A stretch of DNA of 64,000 nucleotides, from the NCBI RefSeq assembly GCF_013315695.1, contig NZ_CP054353.1. One strand, given 5' to 3'. This DNA comes from Escherichia coli (GTDB lineage Bacteria > Pseudomonadota > Gammaproteobacteria > Enterobacterales > Enterobacteriaceae). Positions 1 through 17,004 of this stretch are shown piece after piece. Within the stretch, counting starts at the first letter, position 1. Each line of letters begins with the position of its first letter. The notes below the pieces were generated by a model. It ran no database searches, was not told the DNA's origin, and was given only the letters and a program-made list of their open reading frames with translations. The translations under genes and the position numbers were made by a program.

Positions 1-309
1 TATCCGCAGGGGATTTTTCCGGTACTGGCAGCGTCCGGCGTTTGGGTAGCCTGTTTGCTGACATGGGCGGTAATTCCGGTAGCACTGGCTGCGTTAATTA
101 AGAATGGCCCGCTCTGGCAGGAGTTAAGGGCATCTTTGCTGAAGACAATTACCCGAAAAGAAAACGTATTTACCAGTTGGGTGATGCGATTGCTGATTGT
201 TGTAAGTCTCGCCTGGACGGGGTGGGCTATTACCCTGGTCTTTTATCTACTGACCGTTATTGCCTTCTGGATCACCCGTAATCAGATGGCGCAACAGGTA
301 GCAGCATGA
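1..309 (+). CDS. lysA: LysA-like lysis accessory membrane protein, 5' end outside window
   Basis: Open frame runs from position 1 without stop; hydrophobic segments; sits immediately upstream of lysB as in P2. Confidence 0.45.
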   Translation, partial: YPQGIFPVLAASGVWVACLLTWAVIPVALAALIKNGPLWQELRASLLKTITRKENVFTSWVMRLLIVVSLAWTGWAITLVFYLLTVIAFWITRNQMAQQVAA

Positions 310-734
310 ACCGGTTGCTGCTGGTTGTGCTGACGTTATTACTGGCGGCGCTGGGCTGGCAGACGTGGCGGCTGGCTGATGCCAGCCAGACCATCAGCAC
401 GCAGGCAGACGAGCTGCAGAGCAAAAGCCAGGCACTGGCAAAGAGCAATAGCCAGCTTATCAGCCTGTCCATTCTGACTGAAACCAATAACCGGGAGCAG
501 GCGCGGCTCTATGCCGAAGCAGAACAGACCAGCACGCTGCTGAGACAACGACAACACCGGATCGAGGAACTGAAACGTGAGAACGAGGATTTACGCCGCT
601 GGGCTGATACTCCTTTGCCTGCTGACATTATCCGGCTGCGGAAACGTCCGGCACTCACCGGAGGTATGGCTTACCGTCAGTGGTTGTCCGCGAGTGACGC
701 CGTGTCGGCTGGATCAGGCAACGCCGCGCACTAA
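306..734 (+). CDS. lysB: LysB, Rz-like inner-membrane spanin
   Basis: 142 aa, N-terminal TM helix then coiled-coil-like charged region; position between lysA and R. Confidence 0.55.
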   Translation: MNRLLLVVLTLLLAALGWQTWRLADASQTISTQADELQSKSQALAKSNSQLISLSILTETNNREQARLYAEAEQTSTLLRQRQHRIEELKRENEDLRRWADTPLPADIIRLRKRPALTGGMAYRQWLSASDAVSAGSGNAAH

Positions 735-867
735 CGGTGATCTGAACGCGTTGCTGGATGAAACGGAGGCCGCCTGGGCGGTCTGTGCAGACAAAGTGGA
801 CATGATTATTGCGTGTCAGGAGCGAAACAGTGAACAAACCACAATCCCTGCGCCACGCCCTCAATAA
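577..867 (+). CDS. lysC: LysC, Rz1-like outer-membrane lipoprotein spanin overlapping lysB out of frame
   Basis: 96 aa with lipobox LTLSGC; overlaps lysB 3' region in another frame as in Rz/Rz1 pairs. Confidence 0.5.
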   Translation: MRTRIYAAGLILLCLLTLSGCGNVRHSPEVWLTVSGCPRVTPCRLDQATPRTNGDLNALLDETEAAWAVCADKVDMIIACQERNSEQTTIPAPRPQ

Positions 868-1261
868 AGCGGTGCCTTATGTCCGCAATAACCCGGACAA
901 ACTGCATCTGTTTGTGGATAACGGTTCGCTGGTTGCCACGGGGGCCAGCTCCATGTCGTGGGAGTACCGTTACACACTGAACGCGGTGATTGAGGATTTC
1001 AGCGGCGACCAGAATCTGCTGATGGCCCCGGTTTTGCTGTGGCTGAGGGATAACCAGCCCGATGCCATCAATAACCCGGCGTTACGGGAAAAGCTATTCA
1101 CCTTTGAGGTGGATATTCTGCGCAACGATGTCTGTGATATCAGCCTGAACCTGCAACTGACGGAACGTGTGCTGGTCAGCACTGACGGCAGTGTGTCGAG
1201 CGTTGAAGCTATAGCGGAACCTGATGCACCTGAAGAAATGTGGACGGTGAAACGTGGCTGA
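830..1261 (+). CDS. R: Tail completion protein R
   Basis: Resemblance to P2 gpR as recalled; GTG start at 830 preceded by AGGAG (ORF track extends to 809). Confidence 0.65.
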   Translation: MNKPQSLRHALNKAVPYVRNNPDKLHLFVDNGSLVATGASSMSWEYRYTLNAVIEDFSGDQNLLMAPVLLWLRDNQPDAINNPALREKLFTFEVDILRNDVCDISLNLQLTERVLVSTDGSVSSVEAIAEPDAPEEMWTVKRG

Positions 1262-1700
1262 ACTGCAGAAGGTGGACGACTGGCTGAGTGCCTTGCTGGC
1301 GAATCTGGAACCAGCCTCGAGAAGCCGCATGATGCGCCAGCTGGCGCAGGAACTTCGCCGGACACAGCAGCAGAATATCAGGATGCAGCGCAACCCTGAC
1401 GGCAGCAGCTATGAACCGCGACGGGTAACAGCACGCAGTAAAAAAGGCCGTATCAAACGTCAGATGTTTGCAAAGCTGCGCACCACAAAATACCTGAAAA
1501 CTGCCGCCAGCACCGACTCTGCCAGCGTGCAGTTTGAAGGCAAGGTGCAGCGCATTGCCCGCGTTCACCATTACGGCCTGCGAGATCGCGTCAGTCGTAA
1601 GGGACCGGAGGTGCGTTACGCAGAGCGTCGCCTTCTGGGTGTAAATGATGATGTTGAGGCAATGACCCGCGACATGATTCTGCAATGGCTGGCGGGGTGA
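1254..1700 (+). CDS. S: Tail completion protein S
   Basis: 148 aa, position and size match P2 gpS; GTG start overlapping R stop. Confidence 0.65.
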   Translation: MAELQKVDDWLSALLANLEPASRSRMMRQLAQELRRTQQQNIRMQRNPDGSSYEPRRVTARSKKGRIKRQMFAKLRTTKYLKTAASTDSASVQFEGKVQRIARVHHYGLRDRVSRKGPEVRYAERRLLGVNDDVEAMTRDMILQWLAG

Positions 1701-1768: not shown

Positions 1769-2347
1769 ATGAACGCACAATTAACCGAAATCATGCGCCT
1801 TATCACCAACCTAATCCGCACAGGGGTAGTCACCGAAGTGGACAGGGAAAACTGGCTTTGCCGGGTGAAAACGGGCGAGCTTGAAACCAACTGGATCAGC
1901 TGGCTGACGCTGCGTGCCGGGAATGCCCGTACATGGTGGCGACCATCGGAAGGTGAGCAGGTGGTGCTGCTGAGTCTGGGCGGCAATCTGGACACCGCCT
2001 TTGCGCTGCCCGCTGTCTATTCGAATCAGTTCGCACCACCGTCGACGTCGGCGGACGCCTGCGTGACAGAACATCCTGACGGTGGCTGGTTTGAATACGA
2101 ACCCGCCACCGGGCGCTGGTATGTCAGGGGCATCAAATCAATGGTCATTGAGGCTGCTGACAACATCACCATGAAAACCAGTGAGTTTGTACTGGAGGCT
2201 GACCGCACACGCATTAACAGCGAAGTGGTGATCAATGGTGGCGTTACCCAGGGCGGCGGAGCGATGAGTTCTAACGGGATCGTGGTTGATGCGCATCAGC
2301 ATACTGGCGTCCTGAAAGGCGGCGATACAACCGGAGGCCCGGTATGA
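1769..2347 (+). CDS. V: Baseplate assembly/spike protein V
   Basis: 192 aa; size and position match P2 gpV. Confidence 0.75.
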   Translation: MNAQLTEIMRLITNLIRTGVVTEVDRENWLCRVKTGELETNWISWLTLRAGNARTWWRPSEGEQVVLLSLGGNLDTAFALPAVYSNQFAPPSTSADACVTEHPDGGWFEYEPATGRWYVRGIKSMVIEAADNITMKTSEFVLEADRTRINSEVVINGGVTQGGGAMSSNGIVVDAHQHTGVLKGGDTTGGPV

Positions 2348-7904: not shown

Positions 7905-9077
7905 ATGGCTCAGGATTACCACCATGGGGTGCGCGTTGTTGAAGTCAACGAAGGCACCCGATCCATTACCACGGTGAGCACCGCCATCGTGGGTATGGTC
8001 TGCACGGGCGACGATGCCGATGCAAAAATGTTTCCTCTTAATAAACCCGTGCTGATCACTGATGTGCTGACTGCCAGCGGTAAAGCGGGTGAGTCCGGCA
8101 CGCTGGCCCGTTCGCTGGACGCCATCGCTGACCAGGCAAAACCCGTGACCGTTGTTGTGCGTGTGCCGCAGGGTGAAACGGAAGAAGAAACCACAACCAA
8201 TATCATCGGCGCAGTGACCGCCGAGGGTAAAAAAACAGGCATGAAAGCCCTGCTATCTGCCCAGTCACAGCTCGGCGTTAAACCGCGCATTCTCGGCGTG
8301 CCAGGTCACGATAACAAAGCCGTTGCTACTGAGTTGCTGAGTGTGGCGCAAAGCCTGCGTGGGTTTGCCTACCTGTCAGCATATGGCTGCAAGACGGTAC
8401 AGGAGGCGATCACTTACCGTGAAAACTTCAGCCAGCGCGAAGGGATGCTGATCTGGCCTGACTTTACTGGCTGGGACACGGTGCTGAACGCCGAAGCAAT
8501 GGCATATGCCACCGCCCGTGCGCTTGGTCTGCGTGCCAAAATTGATGAGCAGACCGGGTGGCACAAAAGCCTGTCCAACGTGGGCGTGAACGGTGTCACC
8601 GGAATTTCTGCAGATGTGTTCTGGGATCTGCAGGACCCGGCAACCGATGCAGGTCTGCTGAACCAGAACGACGTCACCACGCTTGTGCGTAAAGACGGTT
8701 TCCGCTTCTGGGGTTCCCGCTGCCTGAGTGATAACCCGCTCTTTGCCTTCGAAAACTACACCCGCACGGCGCAGGTGCTGATGGACACGATGGCAGAAGC
8801 ACACATGTGGGCGGTGGATAAACCGCTTAACCCGTCGCTGGCCCGCGACATTATCGAAGGTATCCGCGCCAAAATGCGCAACCTGGTCAGTCAGGGCTAT
8901 CTCATTGGTGGTGATTGCTGGCTGGACGAGTCGGTGAACGACAAAGACACGCTTAAAGCCGGAAAACTCACCATCGACTACGACTACACGCCAGTGCCGC
9001 CACTTGAAAATCTGATGCTGCGCCAGCGCATCACCGATCAGTACCTGGTGAATTTCGCCAGCCAGGTCAGCGCGTAA
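7905..9077 (+). CDS. FI: Contractile tail sheath protein FI
   Basis: 390 aa; AGGAGG RBS; size and position match P2 FI. Confidence 0.85.
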
Positions 9078-14742: not shown

Positions 14743-14810
14743 ATGGTTCTCAATATTGATATTTTGTGTATCATTGCATTGATTATGATAGCAAAGGTAG
14801 GGATCTGGAT

Positions 14811-15029
14811 ATGATGAATTGTCCAAAGTGTGGTCATGCGGCGCACACAAGGAGCAGTTTTCAAGTAACGGAAAGCACCAAAGAACGTTACTGCCAGTGC
14901 CAAAATATTAACTGCGGGAGCACTTTTGTTACCCATGAAACAGTGGTCCGGTTTATTGTGACACCTGCAGTGATTGCCACAGCCCCTCCACATCCATTGC
15001 CAGATGGTCAGGGCCATATGAATTTTTAA
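14811..15029 (+). CDS. ogr: Ogr zinc-finger late-gene transcriptional activator
   Basis: MMNCPKCGHAAH...CQCQNINCGSTF with four-Cys zinc finger; about 72 aa from ATG at 14811. Confidence 0.85.
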   Translation: MMNCPKCGHAAHTRSSFQVTESTKERYCQCQNINCGSTFVTHETVVRFIVTPAVIATAPPHPLPDGQGHMNF

Positions 15030-15269: not shown

Positions 15270-16346
15270 TTAATAGAATGTTTCTACTAAAGCGTTTACA
15301 TGTTCTCTAGCCTCGCGATAACGCTCTCTTACAACGTTGATAATTTCACCGTTTGGCATTTCATAATGAGTTTGAGCAGGAAGTTTGAAAAGAGGAATTC
15401 CCAAACTTGCAGAAACTTTCCCTGAAGTATGAAAATCTTTAACTTCAGAAAGATAGGCCGCCTCCCATTCATTTAAGTTATTGATTTCACGATATCGCTC
15501 CGTGAATAGTTCTGGGAAGTTCTGATATTGTGTAAAAGCAAAAGCACAAAGGGATTCTTTGATTGAATCATAAGCTCTGGCAACACCAAGATTAGACGTA
15601 AAGTTATTGAAAACAAAGCGATCTAACTTAGGTAATGTAAGATTATTATTCACAACTTGGCTATGAAAAGTGACAAACTTTTCTGCATAGGTTTGTGCAG
15701 CAGAAGAGGGATAATGGCCATAAAGAAGCATCATTATTCCTTTCATCCCTTCTAATGAACTGTAATCAGCCATCATAGGGACGACCAGTCTATCTGAAGA
15801 TAGTAGAGCCATTTGGGTGTAGATAGAAAAACTTGGATTACAGTCAATAAAGACAACCATATCATCGTAATCATCAATATCATGTTCTAGAGTACATAGT
15901 CGACGAAATGCTGTCATATACTCTTTCCATGCGAACCTGTTAGCTGGACTGATAACTGCATAGTTCAGTGCAAGAGTAAGGGACTCGAGGAATGAATCAC
16001 CGGCGATGAGAAACAAATTATCGCTGATTTCATCATTATATTGGTTTACTGCTACTTTGAAAGAACGTCGAATACTGGTGAAATTTGAATGGCCATCTAA
16101 AAGCCAGTCCAGAAACCCTACGACATTTTTGCGTGTTCGTGAAGATTGTAGCTCTTGATTAGTATTGTACCCACGATCACCTCCTCCAAGCAGGTATTGA
16201 GAAATGTTTGCTTGCGGACACAAATCTATTACTAGTACCTGTGTGCTGGGATTTTCTTCTGCATACTGTGCAGCAATGTTGAAACCAAGTGTTGTTTTTC
16301 CAACACCGCCTTTGTTGTTATACATTGCATAAATCTTAACTGCCAT
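15270..16346 (-). CDS. Orphan ParA/MinD-like P-loop ATPase with uncharacterised C-terminal extension; prophage cargo gene of unknown function
   Basis: 358 aa; deviant Walker A KGGVGKTT at residues 12-19, A' motif VLVIDLCPQAN, Walker B-like MVVFIDCNPS; AT-rich; opposite strand to phage late genes; no ParB-like neighbour. Confidence 0.75.
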   Translation of the reverse strand: MAVKIYAMYNNKGGVGKTTLGFNIAAQYAEENPSTQVLVIDLCPQANISQYLLGGGDRGYNTNQELQSSRTRKNVVGFLDWLLDGHSNFTSIRRSFKVAVNQYNDEISDNLFLIAGDSFLESLTLALNYAVISPANRFAWKEYMTAFRRLCTLEHDIDDYDDMVVFIDCNPSFSIYTQMALLSSDRLVVPMMADYSSLEGMKGIMMLLYGHYPSSAAQTYAEKFVTFHSQVVNNNLTLPKLDRFVFNNFTSNLGVARAYDSIKESLCAFAFTQYQNFPELFTERYREINNLNEWEAAYLSEVKDFHTSGKVSASLGIPLFKLPAQTHYEMPNGEIINVVRERYREAREHVNALVETFY

Positions 16347-16641: not shown

Positions 16642-17004
16642 TGGTGGAGCTGGCGGGAGTTGAACCCGCGTCCGAAATTCCTACATCCTCGGTACTACAT
16701 GCTTAGTCAGTCTTTACATTCGCTTGCCAGCTGCGGACGGACACGCCACTAACAAACTAGCCTGATTAAGTTTTAACGCTTCAACCCCAGGCAGGGCTTC
16801 CACGCGATCTCTTTTGGGTTTGACCTCTCTTGATCCCCGTCCTAAGAGCGGAGGCTAGGGAGAGAGGGCTCTAAGCAGGTTATTAAGCTGCTAAAGCGTA
16901 GTTTTCGTCGTTTGCGACTATTTTTTGCGGCTTTTTACGAGGCCAACCGCCCCTCGGCATGCACCTTGGGTTTCGCAAATCCCGTCGAATCCAGAATCAG
17001 CCCC
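16642..17004 (-). ncRNA. ssrA: tmRNA (SsrA)
   Basis: Reverse complement reads GGGGCTGATTCTGGATTCGACGGG...GGACGCGGGTTCAACTCCCGCCAGCTCCACCA; tag-coding region present. Confidence 0.95.

Follow-up and report, generated by a model that had tools for sequence, protein, structure and literature searches.

The question raised by this locus is whether the DNA between positions 306 and 867 of the window (the whole stretch of DNA analysed, 64,000 nucleotides in length) holds one lysis gene, lysB, or two, with a lipoprotein gene read in another frame from within lysB and running past its stop codon. An earlier note had taken the latter view, reading the pair as overlapped i-spanin and o-spanin genes, and this reading is borne out by curated protein families, by the layout of the corresponding genes in phage P2 and by the literature (PMC6139136, PMC3091744). 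Our analysis covered the open reading frames with their frames and overlaps, the signal peptide and lipobox, family membership, conservation, and selection in both frames. The results indicate that 306..867 very probably represents a two-component spanin gene pair, of the overlapped type, belonging to a P2-like (Peduoviridae) prophage, a reading to which we assign a probability of about 0.93. The pair is already known and is named in RefSeq for identical DNA, with both lysB and lysC named among the records listed. Overlapped spanins are textbook examples of dual-frame coding, and the present locus is a standard, widespread copy with little significance beyond annotation. The coordinates of its features are collected in Table 1.

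Table 1. Positions in the window of the lysB/lysC pair, of its predicted sequence elements and of the neighbouring genes.
Feature	Position	Strand	Description	Basis
lysA-position gene, 3' part	1..309	+	membrane protein; 5' end cut by the window edge	NF038378, phrog_162
lysB, assigned as i-spanin gene (Rz equivalent)	306..734	+	ATG start, 142 aa	TIGR03495, phrog_89, RefSeq name
LysB N-terminal hydrophobic segment, aa 3-21, RLLLVVLTLLLAALGWQTW	312..368	+	predicted inner-membrane anchor	hydropathy
Shine-Dalgarno-like GAGGA	564..568	+	GAGG core at 564..567, 9 nt 5' of the lysC GTG	read from sequence
lysC, assigned as o-spanin gene (Rz1 equivalent)	577..867	+	GTG start, +1 frame relative to lysB	NF038368, PF23793, P2 alignment, tblastn, substitutions
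Predicted LysC signal peptide MRTRIYAAGLILLCLLTLSG and Cys21	577..639	+		PS51257-type rule; Cys21 conservation
Dual-frame lysB/lysC segment	577..734	+	158 nt	dN/dS in both frames; both protein alignments conserved
Tail completion gene R	830..1261	+	GTG start	PF06891 P2_Phage_GpR, 6.4e-46

The layout of the two genes was considered first at the level of their reading frames. The start of lysC corresponds to nucleotide 272 of the 429-nucleotide lysB, and the frame continues for 133 nucleotides beyond the lysB stop codon, in agreement with the proposal that it extends past lysB. The accompanying proposal that lysC begins in the 3' third of lysB in another frame holds as far as the frame is concerned and is approximate as to the third, given that the start lies 63% along the gene, in its last 37%. 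A spanin pair is defined as overlapped when the o-spanin gene starts within the i-spanin gene in another frame, as in the +1 register, and ends past its stop codon (PMC6139136), and lysB and lysC are arranged in precisely this manner. At its 3' end, lysC shares 830..867 with the first 38 nucleotides of R, which is itself read in the +1 frame relative to lysC; across lysB, lysC and R (306..1261), each of the three frames is used in turn. At the 5' end of the pair, the TGA stop codon of the lysA-position gene (307..309) and the ATG of lysB (306..308) share the sequence ATGA. Within the dual-frame segment, the lysB frame encodes the conserved C-terminal motif ENEDLRRW..LPADIIRLRKRPA, and the lysC frame provides the signal peptide and lipobox of a predicted 96-residue precursor, together with its first conserved cysteines; the predicted mature form has 76 residues.

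Both products fall into curated families of phage lysis proteins. LysB matches the NCBIfam model TIGR03495 (phage_LysB, Rz-like lysis system protein LysB) with 173.9 bits against a cut-off of 92.75 (1.9e-51), the match spanning profile positions 1-134 of 135, and is assigned to phrog_89 (3.4e-45), which like phrog_456/952 is labelled 'Rz-like spanin'; in Pfam, no match above threshold was found for LysB. LysC matches the NCBIfam model NF038368 (P2_Rz1, Rz1-like lysis system protein LysC) with 121.9 bits against a cut-off of 27 (8.9e-36) and Pfam PF23793 LysC with 58.4 bits against a cut-off of 27 (6.6e-16). A tblastn search with the 96-residue LysC returned matches in 269 phage records, the hosts of which span Klebsiella, Escherichia, Salmonella and Yersinia to Pseudomonas, Burkholderia, Shewanella and Aeromonas. 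In all 11 relatives compared, down to 31-47% identity, the +1 frame begins with a signal peptide and is open across the lysB stop codon. Alignment of 12 LysC homologues, ranging from Escherichia to Burkholderia and Shewanella, showed M1, G9, L15, C21, C37, C43, C70 and Q81 to be invariant, with G20 and C80 nearly so. Conservation of the frame in related phages had been named as a test of the lipoprotein gene, and the phage records together with the invariant lipobox cysteine in the 12 homologues answer it positively. The partner protein is conserved as well: a hydrophobic N-terminus is present in 12 of 12 LysB homologues, and the family motif W..LP....RL..RPA is retained in the C-terminal half of LysB, the same half that overlaps the lysC signal peptide. 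Taken together, lysB and lysC are true members of the P2 LysB/LysC family, beyond mere resemblance.

P2 LysB/LysC is listed as a paradigm two-component spanin (PMC6139136), and P2 lysC has been described as a +1-frame gene that opens inside lysB and stops inside R (PMC3091744). In the P2 genome (NC_001895), lysB occupies 7922..8347 (141 aa) and lysC 8202..8492 (96 aa), with lysC starting at nucleotide 281 of lysB. The window shares with P2 the order lysA-position gene, lysB, lysC, R and S, and the 96-residue reading frame of its lysC is likewise in the +1 register, opens within the last third of lysB and overlaps R by 38 nucleotides; the lipobox cysteine is again residue 21 after a signal peptide, and four further cysteines are conserved. 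Alignment with the P2 proteins, proposed as a check in the earlier note, gave a gap-free match of 42% identity for LysC, covering 92 of 96 residues, with the starts in register (MRTRIYAAG as compared with MRTKIFAAG in P2), and 35% identity over 75 residues for LysB, which is alignable with its P2 counterpart in the C-terminal half only. The two loci differ in that lysC starts with GTG instead of the ATG of P2, the lipobox reads LSGC instead of CAGC, LysB contains no cysteine whereas P2 LysB contains two, and the lysB/lysC overlap is 158 nucleotides in length as compared with 146. Furthermore, unlike P2 Y and K, the upstream holin is of the HP1 type and the endolysin of the P1 Lyz/T4-lysozyme type. 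Lambda differs in layout, with its Rz1 gene lying wholly inside Rz and lysC continuing beyond the lysB stop codon, and profile searches of Pfam, PHROG and NCBIfam returned no lambda-named family for LysB or LysC. Mature LysC, with 76 residues, 9% proline and four periplasmic cysteines, also differs from lambda Rz1, which is described in the literature as short and proline-rich with a single cysteine (PMC3091744, PMC6139136).

The lipoprotein signal of LysC was then analysed. The N-terminus MRTRIYAAGLILLCLLTLSG has R2 and R4 in its n-region, an uncharged hydrophobic core that forms the hydropathy peak of LysC, Ser at −2 and Gly at −1. The lipobox LTLSGC, claimed earlier for this frame, was located at residues 16-21 (622..639), with LSGC at 628..639 and the Cys21 codon at 637..639. 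MRTRIYAAGLILLCLLTLSG followed by this cysteine passes a PS51257-type rule that we coded ourselves (K or R in the first 7 residues, an uncharged h-region, A, G or S at −1, and Cys at 15-35), which points to the lipoprotein signal that had been proposed and is consistent with the SPII signal of an o-spanin. The residue at +2 is Gly and not Asp. Under the established +2 rule, absence of Asp means no retention in the inner membrane and sorting to the outer membrane, and the outer membrane is therefore the expected destination of LysC.

However, the lipobox by itself cannot carry the claim for lysC because the base rate of the rule is too high: ORFs of 60 residues or more number 255 in the window, and 7 of them pass it. 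Of these 7, 3 resemble genuine host lipoproteins, one of which we take to be BamE, and 3 are apparently fortuitous matches. The decisive evidence for the predicted lysC gene is instead homology and conservation, with the substitution pattern in support. Two further lipobox-like sequences were considered and set aside. An antisense ORF (272..487, minus strand, 71 aa) carries the lipobox-like LLLCSSSAC and was taken as a chance match of the same rule, this being the leucine-rich transmembrane region of lysB read backwards. The sequence LTVSGC at residues 32-37 of LysC was rejected as a second lipidation site or a duplication, because no ATG, GTG or TTG that could provide it with its own signal peptide occurs between codons 1 and 40; its Cys37 is the invariant periplasmic cysteine of the family, and P2 has PNAC at this place.

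Features of the two proteins were compared with those of spanins that act across the periplasm. LysB contains a single stretch with a mean Kyte-Doolittle value above 1.6 over 17 residues, located at the N-terminus (residues 3-21), and AlphaFold2 predicts a continuous helix from residue 2 to residue 92 at about 90 pLDDT (mean pLDDT of 82.7). As modelled, LysB is shaped like an i-spanin, a single N-terminal transmembrane segment being followed by an extended helical stalk in the periplasm. Cysteine is absent from LysB and occurs four times in mature LysC (C37, C43, C70 and C80) besides the lipidated residue; any disulfide-linked dimer must therefore come from LysC alone, and the cysteine content predicted for the periplasmic part of LysC would allow homotypic disulfide links. 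This distribution falls inside the range of a published survey, in which 169 of 526 i-spanins had no cysteine, 35 of 526 o-spanins had four, and 507 of 528 spanin pairs had at least one (PMC6139136).

By analogy with lambda Rz/Rz1 and T4 PseT.3/PseT.2 (PMC6139136, PMC3091744), we infer membrane localisation, complex formation and membrane fusion for LysB and LysC. LysC would be translated as the 96-residue precursor from the GTG inside lysB, exported, lipidated on Cys21, cut by signal peptidase II and Lol-sorted to the outer membrane, and the C-terminal parts of LysB and LysC might then bind each other across the periplasm. The holin and endolysin encoded upstream would first remove the peptidoglycan mesh, upon which the LysB-LysC complex could collapse, and fuse or disrupt both membranes, to finish lysis.

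An older annotation regards LysB and LysC as regulators of lysis timing and not as disruptors of the outer membrane. This view has its origin in the P2 record, in which lysB and lysC are nonessential and described by 'affects timing of lysis' or 'regulation of lysis', and names of the 'LysB family lysis regulatory protein' type persist in many phage records. However, delayed or Mg2+-dependent lysis is the laboratory phenotype of spanin mutants (lambda Rz/Rz1; Summer et al. 2007, cited in PMC3091744), which counts against a timing role, and an inner-membrane anchor combined with an outer-membrane lipoprotein signal, both predicted here, would point to a complex that spans the periplasm. With the current curated names being Rz-like and Rz1-like lysis system proteins, we consider it improbable that the pair serves timing in place of membrane disruption, and we keep to its assignment as a two-component spanin.

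The length of the o-spanin and of its overlap with lysB depends on the start codon, and GTG 577 is the predicted start of lysC. It is the sole in-frame ATG, GTG or TTG before codon 40, with none between 577 and 694, and in alignments it falls on the lysC ATG of P2 and Wphi, and on an ATG or GTG in all relatives. By contrast, in the RefSeq annotation of E. coli S88, lysC begins at a CTG that corresponds to position 619 of the window, 42 nucleotides 3' of GTG 577, giving a protein of 82 residues. A start 3' of 577, at CTG 619 or at an internal codon, with a shorter overlap with lysB, is in our view very improbable. In its favour, RefSeq uses the CTG in identical DNA, lysC is annotated in short form elsewhere too, and the phrog_952 profile is confined to the final ~60 residues. 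However, a protein starting at 619 would retain just 6 residues ahead of Cys21, lacking both a basic n-region and a hydrophobic core, and would be incompatible with a lipoprotein signal, and still shorter forms with internal starts would miss the lipobox entirely. The aligned starts, the invariant M1, the GAGGA sequence upstream and the lack of other start codons up to 694 all argue for GTG 577 as the start of the o-spanin gene.

The RefSeq entry for S88 is one of several records in which lysC is mishandled. The gene is annotated as a stub of 48-52 residues without the lipobox in Midge, ST437-OXA245phi4.2 and ST147-VIM1phi7.1, and the record of 4LV2017 has no lysC annotated. Gene callers are known to mishandle or miss overlapped o-spanins (PMC6139136). 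Because lysC is omitted, stubbed or started at CTG in these records, studies based on annotation only will miscount lipoproteins and spanins, and such counts will be wrong at this gene.

We reasoned from the substitution pattern about which frames are constrained. In the lysC-only stretch (733..828), comparison with SopEPhi gave a dN/dS of 0.27 for the lysC frame, as compared with 1.1 and 0.48 (R frame) for the other two, and comparison with ST437-OXA245phi4.2 gave 0.24 for the lysC frame as compared with 1.3 and 1.5. Within the overlap, the values were 0.50 for the lysC frame, 0.53 for the lysB frame and 1.6 for the third frame against SopEPhi, and 0.37, 0.49 and 1.8, respectively, against ST437-OXA245phi4.2. 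In addition, dS of the lysB frame against SopEPhi dropped from 0.62 in the lysB-only part to 0.26 in the overlap. Given that the substitution counts are small (few tens), these ratios are supporting and not decisive, and they support coding constraint on both frames of the overlap.

It is barely credible that the frame at 577..867 is open and bears a lipobox by chance, is untranslated and leaves lysB as the sole gene. Although chance lipobox-like N-termini occur (in ~3 of ~250 non-gene ORFs of at least 60 residues, including the ORF antisense to lysB) and the 4LV2017 record has no gene at the lysC position, the NF038368 score of LysC stands at 121.9 bits against a cut-off of 27, the frame is open in every one of the 11 relatives with an invariant lipobox cysteine and has matches in the 269 phage records, dN/dS favours the lysC frame in the lysC-only stretch, and a missing o-spanin annotation is a documented gene-caller bias (PMC6139136).

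With lysC thus read as an o-spanin gene, its 3' part could have a further role. It is conceivable that this part also acts in cis on the tail genes R and S, linking the lysis and tail-completion modules, either by translational coupling via the conserved 38-nucleotide lysC/R overlap or by an RNA hairpin at 767..785, but we regard such a role as unlikely. In the P2 record, a hairpin of 8 base pairs inside lysC is labelled 'putative transcription attenuator', and the homologous site of the window can form a GC-rich stem of 7 base pairs (AGGCCGC-CTGG-GCGGTCT). The stability of this hairpin does not clearly exceed that of shuffled sequence (z = −1.2, as compared with −2.8 in P2), no T run follows it, and relatives do not carry it consistently. 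A P2-type attenuator in lysC is unproven and was excluded from the finding.

The closest phage relative of the locus is Klebsiella phage 4LV2017 (Peduoviridae, Elveevirus), with 98.2% DNA identity over positions 1..1300 of the window and a LysC that differs at 1 of 96 residues. The 562 nucleotides of 306..867 are 100% identical in E. coli S88, ST131, MS7163, ECONIH4, an O25b:H4 strain and others, and similar DNA is present in about one in five complete E. coli genomes (1022 of 5426). Nothing of substance distinguishes the spanin genes of the window from those of 4LV2017 or of the S88 and ST131 prophages.

These relatives also supply the part of the lysis cassette that lies beyond the window edge. 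The window opens inside the lysA-position gene, whose product has two hydrophobic stretches and matches NCBIfam NF038378 (DNZ54_00345 family, 6.6e-21) and phrog_162. In the identical DNA of E. coli S88, genes for an HP1-family holin (PF16080), a lysozyme (PF00959) and the DNZ54_00345 protein precede lysB and lysC in this order, and the upstream order in 4LV2017 is the same. The holin and endolysin that accompany a spanin pair in a lysis cassette are thus seen in identical and near-identical DNA. lysB and lysC close this cassette and are followed by the tail genes R, S, V, W and J, with R having an equivalent annotated start in 4LV2017 and E. coli S88.

On a larger scale, a P2-like right arm (lysis, tail, D and ogr) fills positions 1 to ~16639 of the window and ends 2-3 nucleotides from the 3' end of ssrA, the tmRNA gene (16642..17004, minus strand; tag ANDENYALAA). 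The genes beyond ssrA we take to be smpB, ratA/ratB, bamE and recN. The prophage is integrated at ssrA of an E. coli chromosome.

A minus-strand gene (15270..16346), located after ogr (14766..15029, PF04606) and before the prophage end, encodes a 358-residue ParA/AAA_31-type ATPase (PF13614, 3.3e-22); a PADLOC search gave no match for it, and the stretch is AT-rich-looking. This gene has the appearance of cargo carried at a site that varies among P2-like phages. The position after S, which corresponds to that of P2 orf30, is another variable cargo spot in these prophages: in E. coli S88, S is immediately followed by an AIPR-family gene of opposite orientation, and this gene is absent from the window, where S (1254..1700) is directly followed by V (1769..2347).
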